Source: an uncultured Methanosarcinales archaeon (lineage in GTDB: Archaea; Nanobdellota; Nanobdellia; Woesearchaeales; DATGWN01). Taken from it: 60,424 nt of DNA. The notes under the pieces were generated by a model. That model worked only from the letters and a program-made list of their open reading frames with translations, had not been told where the DNA came from and did no database searches. The stretch is taken from the NCBI GenBank assembly GCA_964557345.1, contig CAZKZU010000002.1, positions 1 through 60,424 of the forward strand. The letters are read 5' to 3'. The position numbers were made by a program, and so were the translations under genes. Within the stretch, counting starts at the first letter, position 1; each line of letters begins with the position of its first letter. Below are positions 9,801 through 60,392 of the stretch, piece by piece.

Positions 9801-12800
9801 CTGGAAATATTACTGAAGCATTTTTACAAGCTAAAGCTCAACAGTTTGCAAAAACATATACTAGAGAAGTTTTCGGTCTTGAAGATGGAACGTATTTGGT
9901 CAAAACTGTTTGTGTTGATAAATCAGGTAACGTAAATAATAAAACTTCGGTTTTGAGTATAAATGTAGATTCTAGAATTTTTGACGGGGTTCCAAACGGC
10001 GCAATTAATTACACTAATGTCATTTTAAAAGTAAAAACTGCATCTAACGTACAATGCAAATACGGGACTTCAATAAGTGCTAATTTTAATACAATGCAAA
10101 ATTTAATGACTAAAAAAGCAGTGGATACATACTACGAGCATACTGCACAAATCGTAGTTAGTGGAAATTCAGTTCAAAATTATTATGTCAGATGTAATTA
10201 TGATCCTGTTGCAATGGAAAAAATAAGTTTTGTTGTCGATAATATTAAACCAAGTGTAAAAGCAATATTGAATGGAATTGAAATCGGCGATGGCGCTACG
10301 TGGACTCAAAATGCTAATTTGGAATTAAGATGTTCTGATTCCCCTGAATTCGGCTTTGGATGTAACCAAACATATTATTGCACTTCTGACATCGTTAATT
10401 TTAATAATCTTCAAAATGTAGTTTCTTGCACGCCAACAACTACGTATGTTGGACCATTAAACATATCATCTCCAAAAACAGTTTGCTTTTATTCGGTTGA
10501 AAATATTCGAAGTGTTGATAATAAAATTGTAGGAGGTTTGAGTTCAGGAATAATATGTAGGAATATTCTGACAAGTGATTCTGAACCTATATTGTCAATT
10601 AACAATATATCAAATACTACTAATAGAAATAGCATTCTTATTGGAGGAGGAGTTAGAAGTAACCTTCCAGGAAATAAAAAATTATTTTTCAAAATCAACT
10701 CAGAGCTAATTAAAACTGTTGATACTTTGAGCAACTTTAGCTTCCAAACAACTCTAACTAGAGGAACGCCAGTCCACGGGAATAAATATGAATTGACAAT
10801 GTATGCACAAGATGTTTCAGGAAAACAATCTGAATCTTATTCTAAAATTATTACCTACGATTTATCTGGACCAGAAGTTAAAGATTTAAAAGTTCAAACT
10901 CTAAGTACCGGAGATAATTATGGTTCTAATATGGAATTCGGATATAGGGGTCAAATAAGGTTAACTGCAGAAGATGATTACAGCGGAGTGTCTAAAGTTT
11001 TAGTCGAGATTGAAGGAATTCAAAGTGAACTAAAATTCAATGCTCTAAATGGAAAATGGGAGGGCGCAATAAATTCACAAGATTTACCTATCGGTAATTT
11101 TACACCAAAAATTACTTTGTATGATGGACTTGGAAACATTAATGTCGTTTATCTTACTGATGCTGTCGAAATAATTGATGCAATAAATCCAGCATTTACT
11201 ATTAATCTTAAAAGACAGTATTTTAATACAGACGCTCCATTTATAGATATAAATACTAGTGTACTTACTAGTTGTTCAATAAAGTATACTGCTAAAAATA
11301 ATATAAATTATTCGCACCTATTCTCAACTAGTTATTCTAAAGATTTTTCAGTTCAAGTTAAATCTCAACTATATTCTGATGTTGATGACGAGGTTAAGAA
11401 TATAATCAGAGTTGATTGTGTTGATCGAAATGGTAGCAAAGTTGCTAGAATGTTTAACACTTTTGTTGATCTTAAAAAACCAGTTTATTTTGCGGGAATA
11501 TCCTCATTATCTGCTGAAAAGGTAATAACTATGAGAAACGAGATAGATTATCTTGGATTAAAAGCAGAAGACTATTTATTATATTTTAAATCTGATGAAC
11601 CAGTTAATTGCAGATATGCGAAAAGTAATGAACTTAGCTCTAATGGATATGGTTACAATTACACGCTCAGAAATTTTATTAGAAACTTCACTAATTCAAG
11701 AGATACTAATTATATTGTTAATGATGTATCTGACGGAATTTACTTACAAGATAAAACTTCTTATGACTATAAAATACTTTGTGAAGATAGAGCAGGAAAT
11801 CAAGGAAACATTAAAACCATTAAAATAAGTGTAGATTCAGATAGCAGGCCTTATCTATTTAATCTGGACGAGAAACATATAATTAATAATAATAATAGTA
11901 ATAGTAATAATAACGCACTACAAGGAATTAATTTCTATACTGCAAGACCGACTGAGTGCACATATAGCATCAATAGCAGTGAAATAAAAAATCTGGAACA
12001 TAAAAATATTTCGCAAAACATATATGAGTACACTGTAAATACTTCAGACATTATTTCAAATTATGCAGACGGAACTTATGAATTACGGGTTTTATGTAAA
12101 AAACAAAATACAACTAATGCATTCTACACTGTAAGATCTAGTATTATTAAAGACACAATTTCACCCATACTTATATCTGCTAACGGGAAATTGACTGACA
12201 AAACATCGACAGAAAACGTTCTGCCTTATTTTAATGAAGATAAAAAAGAAATTATAAATACTGCTGGCGGAATTATAAATTTTAGTTTTATAACTAATGA
12301 AGATACGAACGTTGCAATTTACAACAACAATGTTCTTACTGCAATAAGTTCAAAAGGAAAAAATCTGAATTTAGAGATTCCATTGATATACGGACTTAAC
12401 GATCTTGAAATTGCAGTAATCGATATTGCAGGAAACTATATTTCCACAAGAGTTCCAGTTATTTCTTCTAGAAATACTCCTGATATAAAACTATCAGAAC
12501 TTTTAGATAACTCTCTTTCAAATAGTTACCAAGGAAATATAAAGTCAAATGTTGCACTAAATACTCCTAATATTAAACTTAAATATGCTCAGAAAGAAAT
12601 AACTATTCCTATTACCCTTATCCCTAATTCTCTTATTCCGAACAGCGGAGTTAATAATTATTATTATAATATATCATTTAGTAAAAATATTCTTTACAGT
12701 CTAATTGATAATAATAATAATAATAATAATAATAATGGCAGTATCAATAATAGTGCAAATAATTTGTCAGGACTTAGTTCTTTTGATTGGCAATATTCTA

Positions 12801-15800
12801 AAAATAATAGTGCATATAATCAAAATTTGATTGATCCGAAAGTCTCAAACATTATTTCACTAGAACTTTATGATGCAGGTCAAAAAATACAAACAGAAGT
12901 TTTCTTATACAGTCCTTTTTCAGAAAGTCTAAAAATATATTCTCCATCGTATAAAGATATTTCTAACGGTGAAATAAGTAATTATAATGAAATAAAAATC
13001 AGCGGAAAAGTAAACAATGATAACTATATCATAGGAGGAAGATATTCTGTAGAAACTACTAATTCGCAAAATAAGATTTCTCCAATAATGGTTCTTGCAA
13101 AAATTATTTCTGAAGGGAGAGGGTTTAAAACTTTTAAATTTAATAATGCGGTTTTACAAGAATTAAACATTAATCAAAATAAATATTCTGTAAGTATTCC
13201 TTATTTAGATAGCGGATACTTATATTTAGAATTATTGAACGATTTAGGAACTTCAGTTATTAAATCAACATTTTTTAGAACTGAGAAAAATAGTCCTTAT
13301 CCAACAATCACAATTTTCCCCGGCGGAGGAGATACTGCTTATTCAAATAGGCCTCAATTCTTAGTAGAAAATAGTGTCCTTGGTAGAATTAAAACAGCAT
13401 ACGTGTCTAATTTTGACCTGTCTAAAAATTATTCTGTTTCTGGAATAGATCCTCAATTTAATTTCAGAGATATAATTATACAAAACGATGCATTGGATGG
13501 AGAAAATGTGTATTATTTGAATGTCATCATAGAAGATAGTAAAGGCAATCTTGTTGAAAAGCAATTTGCTTTTATATTTTCAGTTGCAGACTTTAATTTG
13601 TATCTTAAAACACCTAAATATGGAGTAATGACTAGTAATAATCAAAATGTATATTTAGAGTCAAATATGCCTGCTATGTGCAAATATGCATATTCAGATA
13701 AACCTTATTCCAATATGACTAATGTTACTAATTATTATTCAAGCAAACATAGGTTTATTACAAATATTACTACTAGAGAAAATGTGTATATACGATGTGA
13801 TGCATATGCCGATTCAACTAATAAATTATTTAATTATACTCTTGAAATTGATAACATTGCGCCACAAATTACAAGCATAACTATCGACAATGCTAAATCA
13901 AAGAGCGGAGGATTCTTAATAACTGAATATCCTCTTGAAGCACAAGTAAAAATAAATACGAATAAATTGGCATATTGTAGATATGATATTTCTAAAAATG
14001 AAGCTGGTTTGAAAACGACGTTTGCAAATATGAGGGATGTTGCAATATCTGAATGTGTCGGCATTCAAGATGGAAATTTTTGTTTTAACACTCAATCTAA
14101 TATTAAAATTCCTAATTTACAAGATAAGACTAAGTACTATTTACAAACTATTTGCCAAGGCAAATCTGAATTAAATAGTTCTATTGCAAAAAGAACAATT
14201 GAAGTTGATCTAGGAAAAGATAGCATTAACATTATATCTCCAAATACATATGAGTCAAATCTTAGGATAGACGTTGTTGTTGAAACTAAAAATAATGCGG
14301 AATATTGTGCTATTTCCTCTGGAAATTCAACTCAATTCAGTAATTTAACAAAAGTTAGTGATAAAAGATTTAACTCTTCAATTAGTTTTACAACGACAGG
14401 TCAAAAATCAATAACAATTAGTTGTAAAGTTGGCGAAGAGATATACAATAGAACAAAAATATTCACAATCGATAACACAGTTCCTTTAAGAGGATATATA
14501 GTTCATGCTAATTCGACAACTATTAATTATAGTTTATCTGCAAAAGCAGAGAACTTTTCAGATCCAGAATCAGATATTGAAAGGTATGAGTTTGCAATTG
14601 GCACGGCGCCATTCGGGCAAGATAATTGGAATTCCGTATTAAATTGGACTAGCTCTAGTTCAAGTAATCTTGTGGCAAATAACTTAAATTTAGCTAGAAA
14701 AACAACTTTCTACTGGAGCGTCAGGGTGTTGAATAAGGCTAATTTGTATTCAGTGCCTATTTCTAGCGCAGGAATTTATGTTGAAAATGTAAGCGTTATA
14801 GTTGAATCTGTGCCTAGCTGCAGAAACGGGATTAAAGATGCGAATGAAACTGGAGTAGATTGCGGTGAAAAATGTAATAAAGAATGTCCTGAAGGAACTC
14901 TTTGTCAATACGATGATGACTGTTTTTCGATTGCACTCACTTGTACTAATAACGAATGTAGTTATAGGAATTCAGGTGGCGGTAGTCACACTACAGCGTG
15001 TACTGATGGAATTAAAGATGGAAATGAGACTGGAGTAGACTGTGGAGAGAGCTGTAATAAAGAATGTCCTGAAGGAACTATTTGCGAGTTCGACGTAGAT
15101 TGTTTCTCAGCTAACTTGAAATGTAGTAACAATCTTTGTAGTAAAAGTGATAATAATATTTTTATTAATAGAACATTAGATGAGCCAGATATTAGCATAA
15201 ATAATAATTCTAGTAATTGGTGGATTTATTTAATTATACTCCTTATTGGAATATTAATTATTGCAGTGGTACTTGCATACTATTTCCTCATATATAAAAA
15301 GAAAGATGACGAAACAAATATTTCAAATTATGGTAATATGAATGGAACAACTGGAATGAATACAACTACTCCTAATATGAGTAATAGAGTAAACCCTGCT
15401 GATCAGAATAGACCAAATGTTTCTATTAATAATAAGGGAAATAATAGCAATAATAATGCTCCTAACGTTCCAATATCAAATGTGCCGATATATGCTGAAC
15501 CTGAAGAAAGAAAAGAAGATTTAATTAAAAGGATACTTGAAAAGAAATTAATTGAAGAGAGAAAAAAGAAAGGTAATCAAGAACGAGAAGGACGATTCAA
15601 TTTATTTGAAAGTAAAAAGCGGTTTTCAGATGGGAATAGTGCTTACGGTTCAGGAAATAAGGTTTCTACAAGTAGTAGTGCTGAACAACCAAAAAGAGTT
15701 GTTAAAGAAGAAATAAAACCTAAAGTCCAAGAAACCATTTACAAATCAAATGATGCTGAAAAAGACATTAAGACCGCTGTTAAAAAAGAAATAATTACTG

Positions 15801-18850: not shown

Positions 18851-18876
18851 TCTCCAGTGGAAATAAAGGGGGTCCC
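18851..18876 (+). promoter_or_regulatory. Origin recognition box (ORB)-type Orc1/Cdc6 binding site just upstream of the mcm promoter
   Basis: tctccagtggaaataaagggggtccc combines the TCCAGTGGAAAT dyad core with a G-string. It matches the two ORBs at the cdc6-linked origin. A TATA-like ttttaaata lies at 18899-18907 and the mcm ATG at 18929. Confidence 0.6.
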
Positions 18877-22986: not shown

Positions 22987-23221
22987 TTTTGTGTCTCAAT
23001 TTATATTTTAATAATTAATATTTCATAAGGTAATTGATTATCCTTTTTAAAGGTTCTGGTTTGTAACTATTGTTAAGTAAATACACTTTTAAAAATATAC
23101 TCTGATTTACTCGTAAAATATACGCTTTTACAATTATAATTACAATAAACTATTAATAAGAATGATATGATAACTATATTATACATTGTATATAATAATA
23201 TGAATTTAGTACTTATATATA

Positions 23222-23248
23222 GGGTCACCCCCTCATTTCCACTGGAAG
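23222..23248 (-). promoter_or_regulatory. ORB element (left, inverted) of the replication origin
   Basis: The top strand gggtcaccccctcatttccactggaag has the reverse complement cttccagtggaaatgagggggtgaccc. Dyad core plus G-string. Confidence 0.75.
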
Positions 23249-23622
23249 ATAATTAAAAAATTAAAAATACAAAAAACAAAAATTATTGTTAAAAATCGTT
23301 TGTAAAAGTTTTGAATAATTATTAAAAAATTATTTAAGTTCTCTTATACAATTTAATTATTTTAAAATTTTTTTTATAATATAATAGTCATTTGTTTGTT
23401 TTTTTATTTAAAAATAATATTTTTATTATAATAGTAATAGTTCTAATTTATTTTATTATTATTATTATATTGTATAATATATATATTATATATAATTACT
23501 TTCTATATAGATAATAATATGAAGATTAATCAAAAAAGTGTGAAATCAAAAAGTTAAAGTTTATTAAGAAAAAAATGAAGGTAATAAAGCTATTTTTTGT
23601 TTTTTGTTTTTTTATTATTCAT
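23249..23622. other. A/T-rich duplex unwinding region of oriC between the inverted ORBs
   Basis: About 370 bp of almost pure A/T with tataat/atatat runs. Its ends mirror each other: aaaaatacaaaaaacaaaaa next to the left ORB and ttttttgttttttgttttttt next to the right ORB. Confidence 0.7.
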
Positions 23623-23648
23623 GTTTCCAGTGGAAATGATGGGGTGGC
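23623..23648 (+). promoter_or_regulatory. ORB element (right) of the replication origin
   Basis: gtttccagtggaaatgatggggtggc has the same core and G-string as 23222-23248 in the opposite orientation. It lies 160 nt upstream of orc1/cdc6. Confidence 0.75.
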
Positions 23649-23806
23649 GTATTATGTTCAATATATATAATTGAATTTTATATATTCGGGAATTTATAAT
23701 ATAAGATGATTAACTTTAAAAAGGACCTTTGCTTCGTATGGAAATTAAGGGGAAAGTATAGATTATATTAAATTTATACATATATATTTTATTTTGAGGA
23801 TAGAAA

Positions 23807-25027
23807 ATGACTGATGAAGTAGACGATTTTTTTGAAAAGTATATTGAAAGTACTCCTTTATTTAAGAATAAAAAAATTCTCCAATCTAACTATATTCCTG
23901 ACTCAATATTACATAGAGAGAAAGAAATTAAACAGATGGCTAAAATTTTAGCACCTGCTCTTAAAGGGGATAGACCATCTAATTTGTTTATTTATGGTAA
24001 AACTGGTACTGGAAAGACTCTTACAGCGCAATATTTTTCTCAGAAGCTTATTTATGCGGGTACTAATAATAAAAATAGTGGTAAAACTGATTTTGATGTA
24101 AAAATAGTTTATGTTAATTGTAAGCTTAAAAGAATAGCTGATACTGAGTATCGACTTATTGCACAATTAGCAAGAGAATTTGGTAAAGATATACCACCAA
24201 CTGGACTTCCAACTGATGAAGTATATAAAATTTTTACGCAAGCACTTGATAATAAAAAACAAGTTGTTATATTTATTTTAGATGAGATTGATCAGCTTGT
24301 TAAAAAAACTGGTGATGAAATTATTTATAATTTAACAAGAATTAATTCTGAATTAGTTAATGCTCAAATATCATTAATAGGAATTTCAAACGATTTAATG
24401 TTTACTGAACATTTAGATCCGAGAGTAAAATCTAGTCTAAGTGAAGAAGAATTAATGTTTCCACCATATAATGCAGTTCAAATTCAACAAATATTAAAAG
24501 AAAGATCAAAAGAAGCTTTTGCTGACGGAATTATTGAAGATGGTGTTATTGAAAAATGCGCAGCATTAGCCGCTAGAGAACATGGAGATGCAAGAAGAGC
24601 GCTTGAATTACTTCGAGTTTCTGGAGAATTGTCTGAAAGAGATAGTTCACCTATATTATTATTAAAATATGTGGATGAAGCAGAAAATAAGATTGAAAGA
24701 GATAAAGTTTTTGATGTTGTGGCATCTCAACCAAAACAATTTCAAACTGTAATTTATGCAATATTATTATCTAATAAAGATGGGATGAAAGATATTTTAA
24801 CTGGAGAAATATATTCAGAATACAAAAATATTTGTGATAAGATTGGACTAAGACCTCTTACTCAAAGAAGAGTTTCAGATATTTTAGCAGAATTTGACAT
24901 GCTTGGAATAATTAATGCTAAAGTTATGTCTAAAGGAAGATATGGTAGGACTAGAGAAATTTCTCTTGCAATTCCAGAACAAACTAAAAAGAATTTATTA
25001 AAAATGTTAAAAGATAATTTAGAATAA
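23807..25027 (+). CDS. cdc6: Orc1/Cdc6 replication initiator
   Basis: Walker A IYGKTGTGKT, Walker B FILDEIDQL, AAA+ lid, C-terminal winged helix (RPLTQRRVSDILAEFDMLGII). 406 aa. Confidence 0.95.
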   Translation: MTDEVDDFFEKYIESTPLFKNKKILQSNYIPDSILHREKEIKQMAKILAPALKGDRPSNLFIYGKTGTGKTLTAQYFSQKLIYAGTNNKNSGKTDFDVKIVYVNCKLKRIADTEYRLIAQLAREFGKDIPPTGLPTDEVYKIFTQALDNKKQVVIFILDEIDQLVKKTGDEIIYNLTRINSELVNAQISLIGISNDLMFTEHLDPRVKSSLSEEELMFPPYNAVQIQQILKERSKEAFADGIIEDGVIEKCAALAAREHGDARRALELLRVSGELSERDSSPILLLKYVDEAENKIERDKVFDVVASQPKQFQTVIYAILLSNKDGMKDILTGEIYSEYKNICDKIGLRPLTQRRVSDILAEFDMLGIINAKVMSKGRYGRTREISLAIPEQTKKNLLKMLKDNLE

Positions 25028-34736: not shown

Positions 34737-36224
34737 ATGACTACTTTAGAAGATATGCTTGAAAGTGAGTTTGTTGCTTTAGGTATTGAATCTACGAATA
34801 AGGAACGTCTTATCGGCTTAGTTAATCCATTGAAAATACACCATAAGCCAACTTATGATCATTCTATTCGTGTTGGTCTTCTTTGTTCTAAAATTGCTCG
34901 ACATATGCATATTGATCCAAACGCACTATTTTATCCTGGATTAACACATGATGTAGGAAAATTAAAGATTTCAGCAAATATTTTGAATAAAACTGATGGA
35001 TTAAGTGCAGAAGACTGGGCGGAAATAAAAAAGCACCCTTATTATACACATCAAATATTAAGAGGTTGCTTTGATTTTTCTAGCGAAGTAGGTGGAAGAC
35101 ATCATCAACATCAAGAAGGAGGATATCCAGACCATTTACCTGAAAGCACAATACCTTTTTCAAAAAGAACTTTGTTAATGAGAGATTTTTTTTCAAGAAT
35201 AATTTCTCTTGTTGATTTTTATGATTCAATAACTACTCGAGTTAATAATAAATTTGGTGAAAAAAGAAAATTAAATGAGGATGAAGCTAAAGCAATATTT
35301 TTAATGAAAAATTTAGATCAAAAATATTTGATTGAAGATCTCTATACCAATGGTATTTTTGGAGAAAAAGAAGTTTTAAGTGAAGCAGATGCTAATTCTA
35401 TCAAAGATTCTCACGATATAATTTACAATTCTATTTGGACAGGATGGAATGGTCAAAGAAATCCTCGAGAAACAAGACGATTTATTTCTCTTGCGTGTGC
35501 TTTAGAACCATTATCAGATAAAGTTGGATGTACTACTCGAGAAACTGATTTAAATCGATATCAAAAACTGGAATATTTTATTGCAGGCGCAATAAATATC
35601 GGGGATGCATTTGAGGATCTTGCAAAAAGAATTTCTGAGTCAAGAATACAACCTGAACTAATTTATGATTTAGCATATCGTGCACAAGCTGATTGTAAAA
35701 AAAATCGCTCTGGAGGACGAGTGAATCAAGGAATAATTGAAATGTTGATTCCAATTGTTACTGCACAAATGCTTTATGATCCTAATTATCAATCAACTCC
35801 TGATGAAATTTTAAAAAAAGCAGTTGATGTAATGAAAAATACTACTCCGAGTGATGTTAGAGAATTAATTAAAATGAAACGTTTGGCCTATGATTTAAGC
35901 GGGTATCATGATAGAATAGTTCCAGATTATCCCGAAGCAAAAAACGTGTTCGAATATTATAGCTTAGATTTACAACATTCAAAAAAACTTACAAGTGTAA
36001 AACATAATGAGGAATTCGTATTAGGTTTTCCATCGATTAAAAAAATTCAAGATATGATTATGCTAAGCAAATTACGTGATTTTAATGGAAAAGTAGAAGA
36101 AGCATATAATAATGTTAGACGAGAGGATCATTTTAGGGTTTCTGCAGGACTGACTGCAGATTGTACTGCTTGTGGTATTTATTTAGTTCTTTCTCATCAT
36201 CCAAAAGACAAGGTTGTGAGATAG
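34737..36224 (+). CDS. HD-GYP domain protein fused to a CitG-like (triphosphoribosyl-dephospho-CoA synthase family) C-terminal domain
   Basis: N-terminal half: HSIRVG, LTHDVGKLKI, IKKHPYYTH and RHHQHQEGGYPDHL, which matches the HHExxDGSGYP class. C-terminal half: EPLSDKVGCTTRETD, GGRVNQGIIEMLIPIVTAQ and SAGLTADCTACGIYLVLS. I read these as colinear with E. coli CitG blocks (PKPGLVD...HKDM, GVNTHKGSIFSLGLL, SPGGSADLL..WFL). The C-terminal call is from memory and is less certain. Confidence 0.65.
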   Translation: MTTLEDMLESEFVALGIESTNKERLIGLVNPLKIHHKPTYDHSIRVGLLCSKIARHMHIDPNALFYPGLTHDVGKLKISANILNKTDGLSAEDWAEIKKHPYYTHQILRGCFDFSSEVGGRHHQHQEGGYPDHLPESTIPFSKRTLLMRDFFSRIISLVDFYDSITTRVNNKFGEKRKLNEDEAKAIFLMKNLDQKYLIEDLYTNGIFGEKEVLSEADANSIKDSHDIIYNSIWTGWNGQRNPRETRRFISLACALEPLSDKVGCTTRETDLNRYQKLEYFIAGAINIGDAFEDLAKRISESRIQPELIYDLAYRAQADCKKNRSGGRVNQGIIEMLIPIVTAQMLYDPNYQSTPDEILKKAVDVMKNTTPSDVRELIKMKRLAYDLSGYHDRIVPDYPEAKNVFEYYSLDLQHSKKLTSVKHNEEFVLGFPSIKKIQDMIMLSKLRDFNGKVEEAYNNVRREDHFRVSAGLTADCTACGIYLVLSHHPKDKVVR

Positions 36225-37754
36225 ATGGAAAGATCAAAAATTGCAATTTGGAATTTGACTGATTCAAAATTACCTGAACATATTGATTTTGAAGAAGGAA
36301 TTGGTCCATATAAATTAGCAACTATTGCTAAAGAAAATGGTTTTGATGTTGAGGTTTTTCAGGGAAATCATTTTGGTTGTAATTCCGAACAAATATGCGC
36401 AAAAACTGAAGAGGTTTTAAATAATAAAGGTCTAGTTGGAATAAGTTCTTTTTCTACTGCAAAAGGTTTATTAGAGCAATTAGCTAAAACTGAAACTTTT
36501 TCTAAATACCCTTTAGTTTTAGGTGGCGCTGGGGCTACGACAACTCCTGAACAATATTTAGAGTTATTTAAAGGAAAAAATCCTCTGGTATTAGTGGAGG
36601 GAGATGGTGAATTATTATTTGGACAAATTTTAGATACAAATCCTGCAGATTGGCATACAATTGATGGATTATGGACATACAGTTCTAATGGACTTTTGAA
36701 TAAAGGAAATTTTCAAACTCTTTCTAATTTAGATGAAAGCCCAATTATTGATTTGAAGCCAAGTTTTGCTCGAAAAATAGCTGAATCAAAAGTTAAAGAA
36801 TCATCTTCAGATTTAGTTGGAAAAATTATTGCAATTCGAGCTTTACAGTTTTCCCATTTTGAAACACGACGAGGATGTTATTATAATTGTGGTTTTTGTA
36901 GTGAACCTCAACTTGCAAAGAAGGGAGTTAGAAAAATGTCTCCACAACGAGCGGTTGATGAAATGGTGCATCTTTATAGTAATTTTGGAATTACTTTTTT
37001 TAATTTTTCAGATAATATTGCATTCGACAAACAAGAGTGGTGGCAAGAATTTGCAACAGAGTTGAAGACTAGCGGAATTTCTCAATACATTACATTTGGA
37101 GGTTATGGAACCCCGAAATTTTTTGCGTTACAAAATTGGTTTTCAGAAACAATTCCTGCATTAGCAGAAGTAGGATTATCTTTTATCACATTAGGTGTTC
37201 AGTCAGGATCCAAACGAGTTTTAACTGATATTATTAAAAGACCTGTGGATGATCCTGAAAATGCATTACAAGTTGTTAAAAATGCAGTTCCTCTTGGAAT
37301 AAATGTAAAGACTGATTTTATTGTTGGACATCCAACTGAAACACTTTTTGATTTAGAAAATACTTATACTGCGGTAAAAAGAATTTACGACTCTGGCGGA
37401 CAAGCTTTTGTTAGAAAATTAGGCATTGTTCCTAATTCACAATATGATATAAATTTGAGTAGTGGTAATTACGTTTTACCCAAGTGGACTGATGAATTTA
37501 CTTCAGTTGCTGAAAAATCATTAGCTTATCACGGAAAAAAAGATTCTTATAAAAATATATCTAAACAATTAGGTGTGGTTCCTAATTTAGAATTTATCGA
37601 TAGGTTTAAAGGAGTCAGATTTCCCAAACAGAGTATGAGTTTAGAGGAACTTCGTAAGAGTTTATCTACATTAAGGAATAGTGATATGTACGACGACGTT
37701 AAAATAAATTATGAATTATTATATGAGCTAGTTATTCAACAAAAGTCAGATTAA
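36225..37754 (+). CDS. B12-binding-domain radical SAM enzyme
   Basis: N-terminal Rossmann/B12-like region (VGISSFSTAKGLLEQL...PLVLGGAGATTTPEQYL) and the CxxxCxxC cluster RRGCYYNCGFCSE. The ATG directly abuts the upstream stop (tagATG). Confidence 0.85.
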   Translation: MERSKIAIWNLTDSKLPEHIDFEEGIGPYKLATIAKENGFDVEVFQGNHFGCNSEQICAKTEEVLNNKGLVGISSFSTAKGLLEQLAKTETFSKYPLVLGGAGATTTPEQYLELFKGKNPLVLVEGDGELLFGQILDTNPADWHTIDGLWTYSSNGLLNKGNFQTLSNLDESPIIDLKPSFARKIAESKVKESSSDLVGKIIAIRALQFSHFETRRGCYYNCGFCSEPQLAKKGVRKMSPQRAVDEMVHLYSNFGITFFNFSDNIAFDKQEWWQEFATELKTSGISQYITFGGYGTPKFFALQNWFSETIPALAEVGLSFITLGVQSGSKRVLTDIIKRPVDDPENALQVVKNAVPLGINVKTDFIVGHPTETLFDLENTYTAVKRIYDSGGQAFVRKLGIVPNSQYDINLSSGNYVLPKWTDEFTSVAEKSLAYHGKKDSYKNISKQLGVVPNLEFIDRFKGVRFPKQSMSLEELRKSLSTLRNSDMYDDVKINYELLYELVIQQKSD

Positions 37755-54854: not shown

Positions 54855-57155
54855 ATGGCTGACGAAGAAAAACAAAGTTATGCAGAAATGCAGAAAAAGA
54901 AAGTAGCTGGTGAGTGGGATAAGCTATGGAAAGAGTTAGATAGCACTCAGCCTATTCCTACATTTCATGATTATCATAAACAAGATGGTAGTTATACTAA
55001 AGAAGGCGAAGAAGCCGAAAAGAAATTTGTTACTAAAAATATAAAATCTAGTGATTTTGGTATTGGCGCAGCAATGATGGGAAAGTATGCCGACCCATTG
55101 CAAGGACTTCAAGCCGAAATTAGAGGCGGTGCGAGTCATATTGAATTTTCTCCGAGTATCAATCAAGGTCAAGGATTCCATAGTTTTACAAAGATAAGTG
55201 CAGAAAAAAGAGAGGCACTAAAAGAACTTCGAAAAGTAAACAAGGTTACTATGACAACTCACGCTCATGCAGGAGTTACTGGTCTTACTGGTTTTGATGA
55301 AAGAAGTTATAGTTTTAATGATCAATCAAGACAACATTCTATAGATGAAATAAAAAAGGCAATTGATTTTGCTGCTGATGTTGCTGAAGGTGGAGCAATT
55401 ACTTTCCACGCAGGAGATTTCGCAAGACCAATGGCTGGGCAAAAAATGGGTAATAACGGAGAGGAGTTTATGACTTCTGCTGATGAAAAAGATAATATTG
55501 TTCTCGCAGTAATTGATAAAGAAACAAAATCGAGAGCTGAGGCTGGGACATTTAGGACGGGACAGAAGTTTATGACCCCTATATTAGATAAAAACACTAA
55601 AAATTGGAAAACTCCTTATGGTTTTGATAAGGATTTTAAATTACCACAAGTTGAAAGAATAGATGGTTCTATTAAAACAAAAGAATTTGATACTTTTCAG
55701 GAATATGCAGGTTGGCTTATAAAAAATGACGCTGATTTTAGAGAAGATGTTGTAAAATCAGGTAAGGATCCCGAGGAATTATTAAAAGTAGTAAAAGATG
55801 CTAAAAACAATGATAAATTAGATGCATCTAAGGAAAAAGTCTACGAAGTAAATGATTACTATATATTAGAAAAAGCCGCAGCAAGACAATTTAAAGATAA
55901 AATGCTTTTAAAATTATCGCAAAATGCGAATGATATTACTCGAAGTATGAACACTCAAGAATCAGAAATAACTGAAGTTGAGAAGGCACTTAAAGTAGCT
56001 AAGGACGAATCTAAGGAGAAGGGTATAAAATTATATATCCCTAAGGCGCATCGTGCAAGGCAGAGAGGGGATATGGTAACCGAGCAAGAAAAAAACACTT
56101 TGATGCAAAGAGAACGTTTGTCTGATGATGATTTTATTGTTGTAGAGAACGGTGTTGTTTATGGAGGAGGAAAAGATAAAGAAGATACTTTTATTCAAAC
56201 TTTTTATGCCGGAGTTTTTGATGTTAATCATATACAAGACAGAATTGGTGAAATAGATACTATCAAAGAAAGTCAGAAGTCTGCCATAAAACAAGAATAT
56301 AACAAGTTAATTAATGATTCTAAATACACTACTGTTTCTGAATTTGCAAAAGAGCAAAATGAAAAAAGTTTCGGGCAATTAGGAATTGAACTTTATGAGA
56401 AGAATAAAATTCTTCAAAAAAGACAAGAAGCTAAGGGTGAGAAAGTCGATCAATTATATTTTGCAGTTGAAAATTTATTTCCTGATAAGTTTGGATCTAC
56501 TCCTGCAGAACTTCTTCAAGTTATTGACCAGGCAAGGGGCGCTATGGCTAAGGAGTTAGAAGTTAAGTATAGTAAAAGTAAGTCTGAAGCAAAAAAAATT
56601 GCTGAAGATAGTATTAAAGCCACTTTTGATACAGGTCATTTTAATATGTGGAGAAAGAATTTTAAACGACAAGATGGTGAAGACGACGCTTCTTTTGATA
56701 AGAGATTTAAGAATTGGTCTTTAACTGAAACTGAAAAATTAATTAAGGCTAAAGTTATTGGAAATATTCATTTAGCAGATAATACAGGATATGATGATGA
56801 TCATGTGACTGTTGGGCAAGGTAATGTTCCAGTAAAAGAATTAATGAAAATGCTTGATGAAGCCAGAGGACGAGGAGATGTTGTAGGAAAAATTTCTGTT
56901 GAAGGATTTGATGATTCTGGAGAAAGACACGGTGTTCATGAAGCATGGAAAGCTAGTGGAGCTAGTATTTTTAGAGCTCAACAAGCAACTGATGCATGGA
57001 CAAATCCTGGTTCTAGTGGCGGTTCTGGTGGCGGATACTTTTCTAAGTCTGAAAATTATTCTACTGGGTTTTATACTAAACCTAGTTTTATGTTCGGGAA
57101 GTATGTTCCTGATAGAGAAGAATGGGCTCCTTGGAGTGATACGACGTTAGAATAG
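54855..57155 (+). CDS. Xylose-isomerase-like (AP endonuclease 2 superfamily) TIM-barrel protein with a large internal insertion
   Basis: Barrel motifs are split between the two ends: GASHIEFSP, TTHAHAG and ITFHAGDF (residues about 90-190), then YFAVENLFP, FDTGHFNMW, IHLADNTGYDDDHVTVGQGNVPVKELMKML and ISVEGFD (about 535-680). The roughly 340 aa in between are charged and helical. Confidence 0.6.
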   Translation: MADEEKQSYAEMQKKKVAGEWDKLWKELDSTQPIPTFHDYHKQDGSYTKEGEEAEKKFVTKNIKSSDFGIGAAMMGKYADPLQGLQAEIRGGASHIEFSPSINQGQGFHSFTKISAEKREALKELRKVNKVTMTTHAHAGVTGLTGFDERSYSFNDQSRQHSIDEIKKAIDFAADVAEGGAITFHAGDFARPMAGQKMGNNGEEFMTSADEKDNIVLAVIDKETKSRAEAGTFRTGQKFMTPILDKNTKNWKTPYGFDKDFKLPQVERIDGSIKTKEFDTFQEYAGWLIKNDADFREDVVKSGKDPEELLKVVKDAKNNDKLDASKEKVYEVNDYYILEKAAARQFKDKMLLKLSQNANDITRSMNTQESEITEVEKALKVAKDESKEKGIKLYIPKAHRARQRGDMVTEQEKNTLMQRERLSDDDFIVVENGVVYGGGKDKEDTFIQTFYAGVFDVNHIQDRIGEIDTIKESQKSAIKQEYNKLINDSKYTTVSEFAKEQNEKSFGQLGIELYEKNKILQKRQEAKGEKVDQLYFAVENLFPDKFGSTPAELLQVIDQARGAMAKELEVKYSKSKSEAKKIAEDSIKATFDTGHFNMWRKNFKRQDGEDDASFDKRFKNWSLTETEKLIKAKVIGNIHLADNTGYDDDHVTVGQGNVPVKELMKMLDEARGRGDVVGKISVEGFDDSGERHGVHEAWKASGASIFRAQQATDAWTNPGSSGGSGGGYFSKSENYSTGFYTKPSFMFGKYVPDREEWAPWSDTTLE

Positions 57156-57180: not shown

Positions 57181-58080
57181 TTAGTTTAAAAGTTTTATTA
57201 TATCATTCAAGTATACTAATACGGCACCGATAACTATTATTATTATTGATATAAATTTTCTTAAGAAGTTTTTGTCTTTAATCATATTTCCTACCATTTT
57301 GTTTGCTACGTATTCAAAAAATAAAACTGTTATGGGTTGTAGTGCGGCAATTGCAGTTACTAATGTAGCAGATATTCCCGACATTGCAACATATATTGTC
57401 AATAATCCTATAAAGGTAAATGATTCTGATAAAAGCGCCCATTTAAAATTCTTAAGTTCTTTTGGAAAATCTTTTCTGGTTTTTTTGTGAAATAATATGC
57501 AAAGGACTGTTGCACCCATGACTACAAGGTTAATTGCAAAACCGTTTAATTCAGGTATATTGTTAGTTGAGACTTTCATTAAAAATTCTGCTGTTGCTAC
57601 GCATATAATCAAGGGTATTATGAGATAAAATCCTTTCAACATACCTATTTTTTTAATGTGTAATGATAACAGCAATGACCCAAGAATAATTAAGAATATT
57701 CCGATGTATCCTTGGAGTGAAACAATTTCGTTTAAGAAAAGGAAAGATAAAAGTATGAGTATGATTGGGTATGAGTACATAAGTCCTATCGTGTGAGATG
57801 TATCCTTTTTGCTTAATATATAATAATAGAAAAAGAATTGTGAACCATATAGTATCCCCGCGATTATTGAAGACGTAGATGATGAAAAGTCTATGTTTTT
57901 CCAATCAATAAATGCTGCGAATATTAGTCCGAAAATGATATTTACTATTGCAACCACTGCTGTAAAACTAAGCGTATTTTTTACTTTTTTCGATACAATA
58001 AATTTATCTATAACATTCATCAAACCCCAGATGAAAGGTGATGCTATTGCCGCAATTAATGCTATTAGTAATGTTGCCAT
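57181..58080 (-). CDS. EamA/DMT-family transporter
   Basis: 299 aa with ten hydrophobic helices as two EamA-like halves. Confidence 0.8.
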   Translation of the reverse strand: MATLLIALIAAIASPFIWGLMNVIDKFIVSKKVKNTLSFTAVVAIVNIIFGLIFAAFIDWKNIDFSSSTSSIIAGILYGSQFFFYYYILSKKDTSHTIGLMYSYPIILILLSFLFLNEIVSLQGYIGIFLIILGSLLLSLHIKKIGMLKGFYLIIPLIICVATAEFLMKVSTNNIPELNGFAINLVVMGATVLCILFHKKTRKDFPKELKNFKWALLSESFTFIGLLTIYVAMSGISATLVTAIAALQPITVLFFEYVANKMVGNMIKDKNFLRKFISIIIIVIGAVLVYLNDIIKLLN

Positions 58081-58203
58081 GTTTTGTTTGATTTTGTGTT
58101 TTTTGTATTAATACTAAATAATAACTTATATATATATCTTGGTGATTGTATATTGTATTTTAATATAGTGTATTAAGTATTTAAATTGATTTGGTGGATA
58201 TTA

Positions 58204-59121
58204 ATGGAAATTTACGGGAAAAGCATTTCAAAGGAAAAGGAAGATTTCATTATTCACGAAGTTCAGGATAAGAAAGAGCTTCGAAATTTTAGTGAGAGCT
58301 ATATTTTAAGTTATGCTGAGCATTTGTTAAAGAAGGATAAAAAATTACTTGAGATGATTTCTTCCAAAGATAAACTTTCTAGTAAGTCTGTTGAAAAGCT
58401 TGTGAAATTGATTCGAGATAGAGCTAGACGTATTTATGGGGTTTATATTCCTGGAGATTATGTTAAATTTGATAAACTTTTGTCTGAATGTAAATTTAAG
58501 ACTGGAATAAAAATAAATAATTTATACAATATTGATCTAGTAAAGCCTTTAATTGAGTTGCATGTTTCTTCTGAAGAGAGAAAAGATTCCTATTTGCAAA
58601 TTTATAAAAAGATTGTTGAAGTTACCGGAACTCCTACGTCGGTTCTTGATTTAGCATGCGGATTAAATCCAATTGGAATATATTATTTGGCTTCTGTTTG
58701 CGGAGTTGATGCTGAGAAAATTAATTATTTTGCTTCTGATTTTGGGGAAAAAGATTGTTTGTTGTTGCAAAGTTTTTTTGATAAAGCAAAGTTGCACGGA
58801 AAGGCATTTAGACTCGATTTATCCGACGAGAAAGAACACGTTAAACTTCACGATTTTTGTAATAGTCACAAGGTTGATTGGTGTTTGATGTTTAAGGCAC
58901 TTGATCCTGTAGAGGAAACTAATGAGGATGTTACATATAAGTTACTTCCTTCAATTAAAGCAAAGTGGATAGTTGTAAGTTTTCCAACTATTACTATTGC
59001 GCGAAATGATATGAATAATCCTAGAAGAAATTGGTTTGAGAAAGTGCTTAATCGACTTGATTACAATTTTCAATATTTTGAGTTGAATAAGGAATTGTTT
59101 TATGTGATAAGCAAGAAGTAA
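58204..59121 (+). CDS. ArmA/Rmt (FmrO) family 16S rRNA (guanine-N7)-methyltransferase homologue
   Basis: Colinear with ArmA/RmtB as I recall them: LHVSSEERK (LHASTKERL), VLDLACGLNPIGI (VLDIACGLNPLAL), LMFKALDPVEE (IFKLLPLLE), VVSFPTITIARNDMNNPRRNWFE (AVSFPTRSLGGRGKGME.NY..WFE), KELFYVISK (TELIYLIKK). The ATG at 58204 is preferred over the TTG at 58186, with a TATA-like tatttaaatt at 58178-58187. Confidence 0.72.
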   Translation: MEIYGKSISKEKEDFIIHEVQDKKELRNFSESYILSYAEHLLKKDKKLLEMISSKDKLSSKSVEKLVKLIRDRARRIYGVYIPGDYVKFDKLLSECKFKTGIKINNLYNIDLVKPLIELHVSSEERKDSYLQIYKKIVEVTGTPTSVLDLACGLNPIGIYYLASVCGVDAEKINYFASDFGEKDCLLLQSFFDKAKLHGKAFRLDLSDEKEHVKLHDFCNSHKVDWCLMFKALDPVEETNEDVTYKLLPSIKAKWIVVSFPTITIARNDMNNPRRNWFEKVLNRLDYNFQYFELNKELFYVISKK

Positions 59122-59267: not shown

Positions 59268-60392
59268 ATGTTTGAAGATAAAAGAGTATTAGTTCGAGTG
59301 GAATACAATGTTCCATTGAATAAAGAAGGTGATATTACTGATAATTTTAGAATTAAGGGAAGTATTCCTACATTACAAAAAATTCTTTCTGAAAATCCAA
59401 AGCAATTAGTTTTGATGTTTCATTTAGGTAGGCCTAAGAATAAGGAAACTATTTTCAAAACTGATAAGGTTGCAAAAGAATTAAGTAAACTACTTGGCGA
59501 AGATGTGGTTAAAGTTGATCATTGTGGAGAGGGCATAATGCCGTCTAGTAGAATTGTGATGCTTGAAAATCTTAGATTTTATGAAGGAGAACAAGCAGGC
59601 GATATGACTTTTGCTAAGCAACTTGCTAAATTAGGAGATGTTTATGTAAATGAAAGTTTTGGAACTTGTCATCGAGAAGATGCAAGTATGTATGCTGTTC
59701 CTAGTTTATTTTCTCAAAATAACAGAATCGGCGGATATCTATTGAAAAACGAAGTTGAAAGATTAACTGAAGTTGCGAATGCAAAAAGTTTGACTACAAT
59801 CGTAGGATTTGCAAAAATTACTGATAAGCTTAAAATTATGGAAAAACTATTACAGAAATGTGATAAGATGTTAGTTGGTGGAGCAGTTGCATTTAGTTTT
59901 CTTAAAGCACAAGGTTATGAAGTTGGAAAAAGTCTGTGTGTTGACCCAGAAGTAGCTGGTAAATTGTATAATGACAATCCGGGAAAAATAATTTTACCTC
60001 TTGATTTCGTTGGAAAAGAAGGCGAGAAAATTGTTAGTTATGATTTAGGAAAAATGAGTCCTGAATTTGCAGGTCTTGATATTGGCCCAAAAACTGTTGC
60101 TAAGTTTGAGAAAGAATTGGAAACATCAAAATTAGTTTTCTGGAATGGACCAACTGGAATGTTTGAAGTTGTACCCTTTGACAAATCAACAAATGATTTA
60201 TCTGCATATTTAGCTAAACATAAAGATAAAGTAAGACTAGTTGTTGGTGGCGGAGATACAGCATTAGCTATTGCAAAAAGCGGATTTGCGGATCAATTCT
60301 ATCATATATCAAGTGGTGGTGGAGCCTCTCTAGAACTAATTGAGAATGGAACACTTCCTGCTCTAAAATATATAGAGCATTATATGGAATAG
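59268..60392 (+). CDS. pgk: Phosphoglycerate kinase
   Basis: VRVEYNVPL, the NESFGTCHR region, GGGDTA and SSGGGASLE motifs. AGGAGG Shine-Dalgarno-like sequence upstream. Confidence 0.93.
   Translation: MFEDKRVLVRVEYNVPLNKEGDITDNFRIKGSIPTLQKILSENPKQLVLMFHLGRPKNKETIFKTDKVAKELSKLLGEDVVKVDHCGEGIMPSSRIVMLENLRFYEGEQAGDMTFAKQLAKLGDVYVNESFGTCHREDASMYAVPSLFSQNNRIGGYLLKNEVERLTEVANAKSLTTIVGFAKITDKLKIMEKLLQKCDKMLVGGAVAFSFLKAQGYEVGKSLCVDPEVAGKLYNDNPGKIILPLDFVGKEGEKIVSYDLGKMSPEFAGLDIGPKTVAKFEKELETSKLVFWNGPTGMFEVVPFDKSTNDLSAYLAKHKDKVRLVVGGGDTALAIAKSGFADQFYHISSGGGASLELIENGTLPALKYIEHYME

Follow-up and report, generated by a model that had tools for sequence, protein, structure and literature searches.

A Nanoarchaeota-type member of the FmrO/Arm/Rmt 16S rRNA methyltransferase family on a Woesearchaeales contig, a candidate housekeeping enzyme

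To our knowledge, every characterized methyltransferase that forms N7-methylguanosine at position 1405 of 16S rRNA (m7G1405) is a resistance or self-protection enzyme, and we know of no organism in which G1405 is modified natively. The FmrO/Arm/Rmt family includes acquired enzymes of Gram-negative pathogens such as RmtC, which is plasmid-borne and mobile, and the self-protection enzymes of actinomycetes (Sgm, FmrO, GrmA, KgmB), with Sgm-type producer genes lying in antibiotic biosynthesis clusters. An archaeal branch has also been noted: NEQ545 of Nanoarchaeum equitans was the first archaeal Arm ortholog, with its function left open and an orthodox function doubted (Husain et al. 2010; PMC2896518), and a homolog of bacterial 16S rRNA methyltransferases was the sole annotated gene of 15 that, in the archaeal genomes of the time, only N. 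equitans and the nanoarchaeon Nst1 from Yellowstone had in common, i.e. a Nanoarchaeota signature gene (Podar et al. 2013; PMC3655853). No paper joining FmrO with archaea by name was found in the library searched, and NEQ545 was found mentioned only in Husain et al. 2010. Here a gene of this family is described from contig CAZKZU010000002.1 (assembly GCA_964557345.1; positions 1 to 60,424, hereafter the window, meaning the whole 60,424-nt stretch analyzed), deposited as an uncultured Methanosarcinales archaeon and placed by GTDB in the Woesearchaeales. Since NEQ545 was reported in 2010 and the signature gene in 2013, it is a new member of an already noted branch, not the first archaeal copy. 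Its product appears to belong to a deep, separate archaeal subfamily, found almost only in Nanoarchaeota sensu lato (Woesearchaeales, Pacearchaeales and Nanoarchaeales; DPANN). It would most simply be explained, with a probability of roughly 0.6, as an active S-adenosylmethionine (SAM)-dependent methyltransferase that is vertically inherited and constitutively methylates the G1405 equivalent in the 16S rRNA of its own cell as a housekeeping function. Beyond the earlier reports, the present analysis shows how large and deep the branch is, that it reaches into Woese- and Pacearchaeota, which substitutions are diagnostic of it and that its genes are recurrently linked to those for subunit maturation and translation.

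That the protein belongs, by descent, to the FmrO/Arm/Rmt family is all but certain. FmrO (PF07091) is the sole significant Pfam family for the protein (61.9 bits vs a gathering score of 27, E = 8.2e-17; residues 65-301 on profile positions 30-255 of 255), and all eight matches in a sequence search of the PDB are m7G1405 methyltransferases, with RmtC (E = 1.8e-15, residues 64-304) and Sgm (6e-10) ahead of RmtF, RmtB and ArmA. An AlphaFold2 model built from 110 homologs (predicted local distance difference test score, pLDDT, 95.6; predicted TM-score, pTM, 0.91) has a short hairpin at its N-terminus and six helices, followed by a Rossmann-type alpha/beta domain. The top 16 Foldseek matches of this model in the PDB are all RmtC, Sgm, RmtF, RmtB or ArmA (E 2e-14 to 1e-9; TM-score normalized to target, TMt, 0.64-0.81), with about 300 aligned columns that include the N-terminal domain, and the next matches are generic class I methyltransferases at E = 1e-6 or weaker, a drop of 3-8 orders of magnitude. 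Model and matches together present the two-domain architecture of the family, an N-terminal helical domain for docking on the 30S subunit (subdomains N1 and N2) followed by a class I Rossmann SAM domain. The initial annotation, made from sequence without database searches, had called the protein an ArmA/Rmt/FmrO homolog colinear over its whole length with ArmA and RmtB. The colinearity is correct, given full-length Foldseek alignments to m7G1405 enzymes; the FmrO profile that it named as a check does match, and the best matches are not unrelated class I methyltransferases. The homology claim is upheld as regards membership of the family; the protein is not, though, equivalent to the resistance enzymes, for reasons given below.

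RmtC (6PQB, 6CN0, 8GHU) is the best solved relative by sequence (~26% identity) and among the best by fold, sharing the N1/N2 helical and Rossmann domains, the SAM motifs and counterparts of Lys204, Tyr60, Arg50, Lys47 and Met245. The window protein differs from it in the replacement of Tyr21 and His54, in Asp for Thr207, in a helix 44 (h44) loop two residues shorter than in Rmt/ArmA and in a 20-residue N-terminal extension with a beta-hairpin; its gene is chromosomal, archaeal and apparently vertically inherited. Sgm shares the Pfam family and the fold (3LCU, TMt 0.80, second to RmtB 3B89 at 0.81), with Sgm R108, D156 and D182 corresponding to R126, D179 and D205, although its sequence match is weaker than that of RmtC and the window gene does not lie in an antibiotic biosynthesis cluster. 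In the protein databases, the next-nearest relatives beyond the archaeal group are chromosomal FmrO proteins of Chloroflexota (Anaerolineae, Caldilineaceae, Roseilinea; 23-28% identity), annotated as ‘16S rRNA methyltransferase’, which keep Lys20, Tyr21 and His54 and fall on the Rmt/ArmA side of the tree instead of in the archaeal clade.

For comparison of residues, RmtC, RmtB, ArmA and RmtF were taken from plasmid records and aligned (MAFFT) with 214 database homologs; clade frequencies refer to 162 archaeal-type sequences and the bacterial comparison to 52 Chloroflexota-like relatives, and residue roles were assigned from Sgm-cofactor structures (PMC2896518) and the RmtC-30S cryo-electron microscopy structure (PMC10288597). 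Each of the five sequence blocks quoted in the initial annotation is found in the protein and has its aligned counterpart in the resistance enzymes: LHVSSEERK (residues 119-127) pairs with LHTSTNERT of RmtC and LHASTKERL of RmtB, VLDLACGLNPIGI (147-159) with VLDIACGLNPLAL of RmtB, and LMFKALDPVEE (228-238), VVSFP (257-261) and ELFYVI (297-302) with LMFKLYTLLDRQEE, VISFP and EMYFIV of RmtC, respectively. In the first block, S122 (162/162), E125 (161/162) and R126 (162/162) are also invariant in all 52 bacterial relatives; the Sgm counterpart of R126, R108, binds the SAM carboxylate, and R108A abolishes cofactor binding (PMC2896518). Motif I retains D149 (RmtC Asp134; 162/162), G153 (161/162), N155 (161/162) and P156 (158/162), the acidic residue of motif II is the one that binds the SAM ribose hydroxyls in RmtC (D160) and Sgm (D156) (PMC2896518, PMC10288597), and D205 of motif III (RmtC Asp188, Sgm D182) is D in 131/162 and N in 29/162.

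The residues that handle the target guanine in RmtC are likewise kept. K231 is invariant in the archaeal-type (162/162) and bacterial (52/52) sequences, and its counterpart, the universally conserved RmtC Lys204, contacts N7 of the flipped G1405, with K204A abolishing activity (PMC10288597). Y81, equivalent to the stacking aromatic Tyr60, is F or Y in 161/162. The N-terminal domain retains, besides Y81, K68 (RmtC Lys47; K in 151/162) and R71 (RmtC Arg50; R in 154/162), whose RmtC counterparts contact helices 27 and 45 (h27, h45; PMC10288597), and M270, the equivalent of the h44 wedge Met245, is M, I or L in 144/162 and lies in the counterpart of Loop237-246, which in RmtC pries h44 open (PMC10288597). 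From these columns the catalytic and cofactor machinery appears intact and under strong purifying selection.

The distribution of the subfamily was followed through several searches. A word-indexed protein search returned 85 homologs, 85/85 with PF07091, about 28 of them at 30-53% identity (one named, as Nanoarchaeota archaeon) and the rest Chloroflexota at 23-28%; several relatives are labeled ‘16S rRNA (guanine(1405)-N(7))-methyltransferase’ by the JGI pipeline. An exhaustive HMMER search of 1.84 billion representatives (clusters at 50% identity) gave 938 clusters under a threshold of E<=1e-3, of which 474 reached E<=1e-10 and 70 reached E<=1e-30; each of the top 150 exceeds 105 bits, against ~61 bits for RmtC. 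Scanning genome contigs with the single protein found no relative; a pattern scan seeded with a 19-sequence alignment covered each GTDB species by one genome and yielded at least 586 relatives, a figure that is not an archaeal count because the seed pattern also fits bacterial Rmt genes. Among the best 80 of these (28-36% identity), 79 carry archaeal labels, comprising 30 Woesearchaeota, 18 Nanoarchaeota/Nanoarchaeia/Nanobdellati, 4 Pacearchaeota, 6 ‘archaeon’, 20 ‘uncultured Methanosarcinales archaeon’ and 1 Methanobacteriota; the remaining one is labeled Acidobacteriota. The 20 ‘Methanosarcinales’ loci (e.g. L020, L040, L047) have a Woesearchaeota-type Pelota/TrmB/PheRS neighborhood, and the Acidobacteriota-labeled locus (L060, DATGWN010000030.1) is a 5.5-kb contig with an archaeal order of AP-endonuclease-2-like gene followed by FmrO, its label probably due to mis-binning. 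Both labels were taken as placeholders or mis-binned, since the gene neighborhoods equal those of Woesearchaeota-labeled loci.

In a distance-based neighbor-joining (NJ) tree of 218 sequences (162 archaeal-type, 52 bacterial relatives, RmtB, RmtC, RmtF and ArmA), the archaeal-type sequences were split from the bacterial and Rmt/ArmA sequences in 50/50 bootstraps. Median pairwise identity inside the archaeal clade is 35%, and identity to the Rmt/ArmA references 21-27%. The window protein combines an archaeal host, conserved C-terminal motifs, a diverged N-terminal domain and a place in this separate clade, and in the first three of these features it resembles NEQ545 and the Nst1 protein, Nanoarchaeota-lineage Arm/FmrO members whose C-terminal motifs are perfectly conserved. 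Unlike NEQ545, which was reported to lack one N-terminal helix, it has a full-length, even extended, N-terminal domain. NEQ545 was an offshoot of the pathogen enzymes in the 2010 tree; in the present one the sequences from archaea make up a large clade of their own, to which we infer that NEQ545 belongs. The lineage of the window itself is consistent, the best named homolog of a neighboring 766-aa protein coming from a Nanobdellota archaeon (46% identity). Two proteins, P0102 (482 aa) and P0186 (489 aa), are fusions of an archaeal-type FmrO with a C-terminal class I methyltransferase domain (Methyltransf_11/25). No informative solved relative was found for this second domain, a generic class I methyltransferase, and the fusions may be double rRNA methyltransferases.

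Neighborhoods were compared at 82 loci with a recognizable FmrO open reading frame (ORF) (91 loci fetched, 1.2 Mb). In relatives the methyltransferase gene often shares its direction with genes for translation or for late steps of small-subunit maturation, in many cases linked to them as in an operon. The order Pelota, FmrO, TrmB-type regulator, PheRS alpha/beta is found at 15/82 loci, with Pelota directly upstream in 13 and the Pelota and FmrO genes overlapping at some (e.g. by 13 nt). At 12/82 loci, FmrO follows a Dim2/Pno1 KH protein (in places preceded by eIF1A and RIO kinase), which is directly upstream in 10 and overlaps FmrO at some loci (e.g. by 4 nt). eIF1A, RIO and Dim2/Pno1 serve late maturation of the small subunit and initiation, and Dim2/Pno1 acts on the h44/h45 face used by RmtC. 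This surface of the 30S subunit is also used by KsgA (PMC10288597). Synteny groups largely match FmrO subclades, with 13/15 Pelota-linked genes in one clade of 14, as expected from vertical descent.

A third arrangement, AP-endonuclease-2-like gene followed by FmrO, comprises 5/82 loci (the window, L002, L047, L060 and L064). In L002, the closest relative with a long contig (48% identity), a 750-aa AP-endonuclease-2-like gene, FmrO and pgk follow each other with overlapping stop/start codons (FmrO and pgk by 17 nt), and the EamA gene that separates the first two in the window is absent. The 766-aa protein gene of the window is thus represented in the nearest relatives as a conserved upstream, sometimes overlapping, partner, and its homologs lie on the same contigs as FmrO homologs. 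Only the C-terminal part of the 766-aa protein (residues 580-688) matches the TIM barrel, and 19 homologs were found in 5.8 billion proteins. Directly downstream of the FmrO/pgk genes, L002 encodes an 867-aa protein with intein splicing and LAGLIDADG domains (12202-14805), and L004 an intein-interrupted topoisomerase VI B subunit (10876-14121).

The absence of an obvious mobile context claimed in the initial annotation was borne out. G+C content of the gene is 31.0% vs 30.3% for the window, its codon usage correlates with that of other genes at 0.81, and no flanking repeats, insertion sequences (IS) or integrases were found at the gene in the window. It lies among archaeal housekeeping genes, in contrast to rmtB, which adjoins blaTEM-1 and IS26. 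An origin by mobile element or horizontal gene transfer was rejected on native G+C content, lack of repeats and synteny shared with relatives.

From family, fold, residues, distribution and neighborhoods, substrate nucleotide, timing and physiological role can be proposed as follows. N7-methylation of the G1405 equivalent is the most likely chemistry, and a probable one, given the fold and the conserved G-positioning residues. By homology with the RmtC-30S complex, the N-terminal helical domain, rich in Lys and Arg, would bind the nearly mature small subunit at its h24/h27/h44/h45 surface, and the 261-277 loop, which includes M270, would pry open the top of h44. The G1405-equivalent guanine would flip out between Y81 and the cofactor, with K231 holding its N7 in place to receive the methyl group. 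Such methylation would in consequence make the cells insensitive to 4,6-disubstituted deoxystreptamine aminoglycosides, which might be a selective benefit on top. The two alternatives raised in the initial annotation, intrinsic modification of h44 and protection against aminoglycosides, remain the right two; a constitutive, self-directed role is favored over defense because of lineage-wide vertical inheritance in reduced genomes and the maturation-factor neighborhoods.

Several observations, on the protein, the literature and the locus, weigh against a constitutive methylation of G1405. The protein scores 107.3 bits on NCBIfam NF000466 (the Rmt family equivalog), for which the cut-off is 250, and 19-61 bits on the RmtC, H, D, B, F, E and G models (cut-offs 500-550). 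With these scores, the loss of Tyr21 and His54, its place in a separate archaeal subfamily and the lack of a mobile or producer-cluster context, it ought not to be classed as an Rmt equivalog or an acquired resistance gene. No biochemical datum on any archaeal FmrO-family member was found in the literature. No rRNA or tRNA gene was found in the window (Rfam, ARAGORN), nor was the universal ACACACCGCCCGTC 16S motif found in the 91 loci; conservation of G1405 and its surroundings in this lineage is presumed from general knowledge. The case for calling the gene ‘housekeeping’ is built on diversity and synteny rather than on a phyletic census.

Further points on this side concern how the protein would meet the ribosome. 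The column of RmtC Tyr21 holds L26 (or, with a one-residue shift, E25) and is Leu in 127/162, and that of His54 holds R75 (Arg in 117/162, His in 31/162). The bacterial relatives keep Lys20 in 45/52, Tyr21 in 52/52 and His54 in 51/52. In RmtC, Tyr21 and His54 contact G1516 of h45, are required for activity and are near-universal in Rmt enzymes (PMC10288597). MAFFT placement of Lys20/Tyr21 is ambiguous by one residue (KKEL vs KKY), so the claim is restricted to loss of Tyr21, not of Lys20. D234 is a clade-specific Asp (145/162) where Rmt/ArmA have Pro or Thr (RmtC Thr207), the residue that contacts A1408 (PMC10288597). The part of N1 that reads h45 in RmtC thus appears remodeled in the archaeal clade, and with these contacts replaced, docking and conceivably the target could differ from those of RmtC. 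A protein that kept fold and N7-guanine chemistry and shifted to another small-subunit guanine, or to a Dim2/Pno1-bound pre-ribosomal intermediate, would account for the systematic replacements in N1 (Tyr21 to Leu, His54 to Arg, Lys20 to Glu or a one-position shift), for Asp234, for the shorter h44 loop and for linkage to Dim2/Pno1 and RIO, acting before final maturation, and it would fit the doubt of Husain et al. over NEQ545. Such a shift is nevertheless quite unlikely: Y81, K231 and the h44-wedging Met are conserved, as are the h45 and h27 contacts R71 and K68, the whole predicted two-domain architecture superposes on the G1405 enzymes, and few RNA surfaces are as highly conserved as that of h44/h45.

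The columns of RmtC Lys236 and Arg241 are Ile and Asn in the window protein; the clade is basic at the former in 92/162 and at the latter (Lys or Arg) in 127/162. These two replacements would also suit a decayed or non-catalytic remnant, either a pseudo-enzyme or an RNA-binding assembly factor, which is highly improbable in view of the intact reading frame, the SAM motifs and catalytic Lys kept across 162 diverse sequences, the very confident fold prediction and the basic R267 that adjoins the Arg241 column in the loop.

At the locus itself, the gene does not adjoin ribosome genes and, as weak evidence, its G+C content at third codon positions (GC3) is 26.5% vs 17-21% in replication and core genes, a possible sign of low expression or of a separate history. 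The divergent EamA gene shares this raised GC3 (~26.5% over 57181-59121). Both points could be turned towards m7G1405 having been selected for protection from aminoglycosides of neighbors, as for episymbiotic archaea in antibiotic-rich communities: the window gene has a transporter gene as its neighbor and a slightly unusual GC3, the characterized members of the family all serve resistance or self-protection, and archaeal 16S rRNA has the bacterial-type A1408, with several archaea being aminoglycoside-sensitive. Defense as the selected function is, however, unlikely. The clade, deep and diverse, is confined to its lineage and keeps its synteny stable within subclades, and no mobile elements were found at the window gene; the gene is kept in strongly reduced genomes including those of N. 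equitans and Nst1; translationally coupled arrangements with Dim2/Pno1, RIO kinase, eIF1A and Pelota recur; and no aminoglycoside biosynthesis or other resistance genes were found near the methyltransferase gene in the window.

Extending the constitutive, self-directed role to the whole group gives a more tentative proposal, possible though at somewhat less than even odds: Woese-, Pace- and Nanoarchaeales would constitutively carry m7G1405, installed late, near the Dim2/Pno1-RIO steps, as the first housekeeping instance of this modification. If so, a whole archaeal phylum would be intrinsically insensitive to gentamicin/kanamycin-class drugs, and the Arm/Rmt resistance enzymes might be offshoots of an ancient self-directed maturation methyltransferase, as Erm is of KsgA. 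The KsgA/Dim1 and Erm pair, one family with both universal ribosome-maturation and resistance enzymes, is an analogy only, being another family with another chemistry (N6-adenine) and another target. The archaeal branch, large, old, lineage-wide and kept in some of the smallest cellular genomes, is the best candidate for a native m7G1405. Proof of a native role would clarify the origin of Rmt/ArmA and the effect of m7G1405 on decoding without drug, and would show whether metagenomic ‘resistome’ surveys that count FmrO hits mislabel a DPANN housekeeping gene as resistance.

The methyltransferase gene is an uninterrupted ORF (ATG start, 305 aa plus stop; Table 1). The ORF list reaches further 5′, to a TTG at 58186, which was rejected as the start; the ATG is taken as the true start on account of the Shine-Dalgarno-like box and the homolog N-termini (MEIYGKS, MKIYDKT, MKVFNKE), and it is also the start of the public gene call. 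The possible TATA box falls within the AT-rich, 123-nt divergent intergenic region between the methyltransferase and EamA genes. The flanks are, as first annotated, a drug/metabolite transporter (DMT) gene and pgk, and the archaeal origin of the gene is upheld by the window's content (MCM, Cdc6/Orc1, PolD DP1 and DP2, FttA/aCPSF1 and an ATP-dependent DNA ligase), which also includes SMC/ScpA, aIF2-beta and a proteasome subunit.

Table 1 Position and basis of features of the methyltransferase locus and of other features in the window.
Feature	Position	Strand	Basis and remarks
Complete coding sequence, FmrO/Arm/Rmt-family SAM-dependent rRNA methyltransferase, archaeal (Nanoarchaeota-type) subfamily	58204..59121	+	Pfam, PDB, Foldseek
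TTATATATATAT, possible archaeal TATA box	58127..58138	+	~65 nt 5′ of ATG; suggested by the letters only
GGTGGAT, Shine-Dalgarno-like box	58193..58199	+	4 nt 5′ of ATG; read from sequence
N-terminal domain, residues 1-118, short beta-hairpin and six helices	58204..58557	+	Equivalent to N1/N2 30S-docking subdomains of RmtC; DSSP of model, Foldseek
LHVSSEERK; S122, E125, R126	58558..58584	+	RmtC S107, E110, R111; R126 = Sgm R108
Motif I VLDLACGLNPIGI, SAM-binding loop; D149, G153, N155, P156	58642..58680	+	Invariant columns; RmtC D134, N140, P141
D179, motif II acidic residue	58738..58740	+	Alignment; RmtC D160, Sgm D156; D or E in 161/162
LMFKALDPVEE; K231	58885..58917	+	Alignment; RmtC K204
VVSFPTITIARNDMNNPRRNW, residues 257-277, beta-strand and loop	58972..59034	+	Alignment; RmtC Loop237-246
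766-aa protein, split xylose-isomerase/AP-endonuclease-2 TIM barrel	54855..57155	+	Pfam PF01261; upstream, co-directional
EamA/DMT transporter gene	57181..58080	-	Pfam PF00892; between 766-aa gene and methyltransferase gene
Phosphoglycerate kinase gene pgk	59268..60392	+	Pfam PF00162, E=1e-108; directly downstream, co-directional
Intergenic region, 820 bp, probable replication origin	22987..23806		Directly upstream of cdc6/orc1
cdc6/orc1	23807..25027		
ORB-like box, perfect	23227..23247	-	TTCCAGTGGAAATGA[G/T]GGGGT
ORB-like box, perfect	23625..23645	+	TTCCAGTGGAAATGA[G/T]GGGGT
ORB-like box, weaker	18852..18872	+	Just upstream of MCM (18929)
ORF of 3024 aa	6851..15925	+	CarboxypepD_reg-like domain, residues 327-402
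HD-domain/CitG fusion protein	34737..36224	+	CitG part triphosphoribosyl-dephospho-CoA synthase-like
B12-binding radical SAM protein	36225..37754	+	No gap after HD/CitG fusion

Elsewhere in the window, the intergenic region upstream of cdc6/orc1 is a probable chromosomal replication origin. Two perfect boxes resembling origin recognition boxes (ORB) stand there in inverted orientation, flanking a ~377-bp extremely AT-rich stretch, with a third, weaker box near MCM; none would be expected by chance, and genes for MCM, Cdc6 and the small and large subunits of PolD cluster around them. The giant 3024-aa ORF, in which a single domain is recognizable, probably encodes a huge surface protein as typical of DPANN archaea. 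The HD-domain/CitG fusion gene and the directly following gene for a B12-binding radical SAM protein form an unusual pairing.

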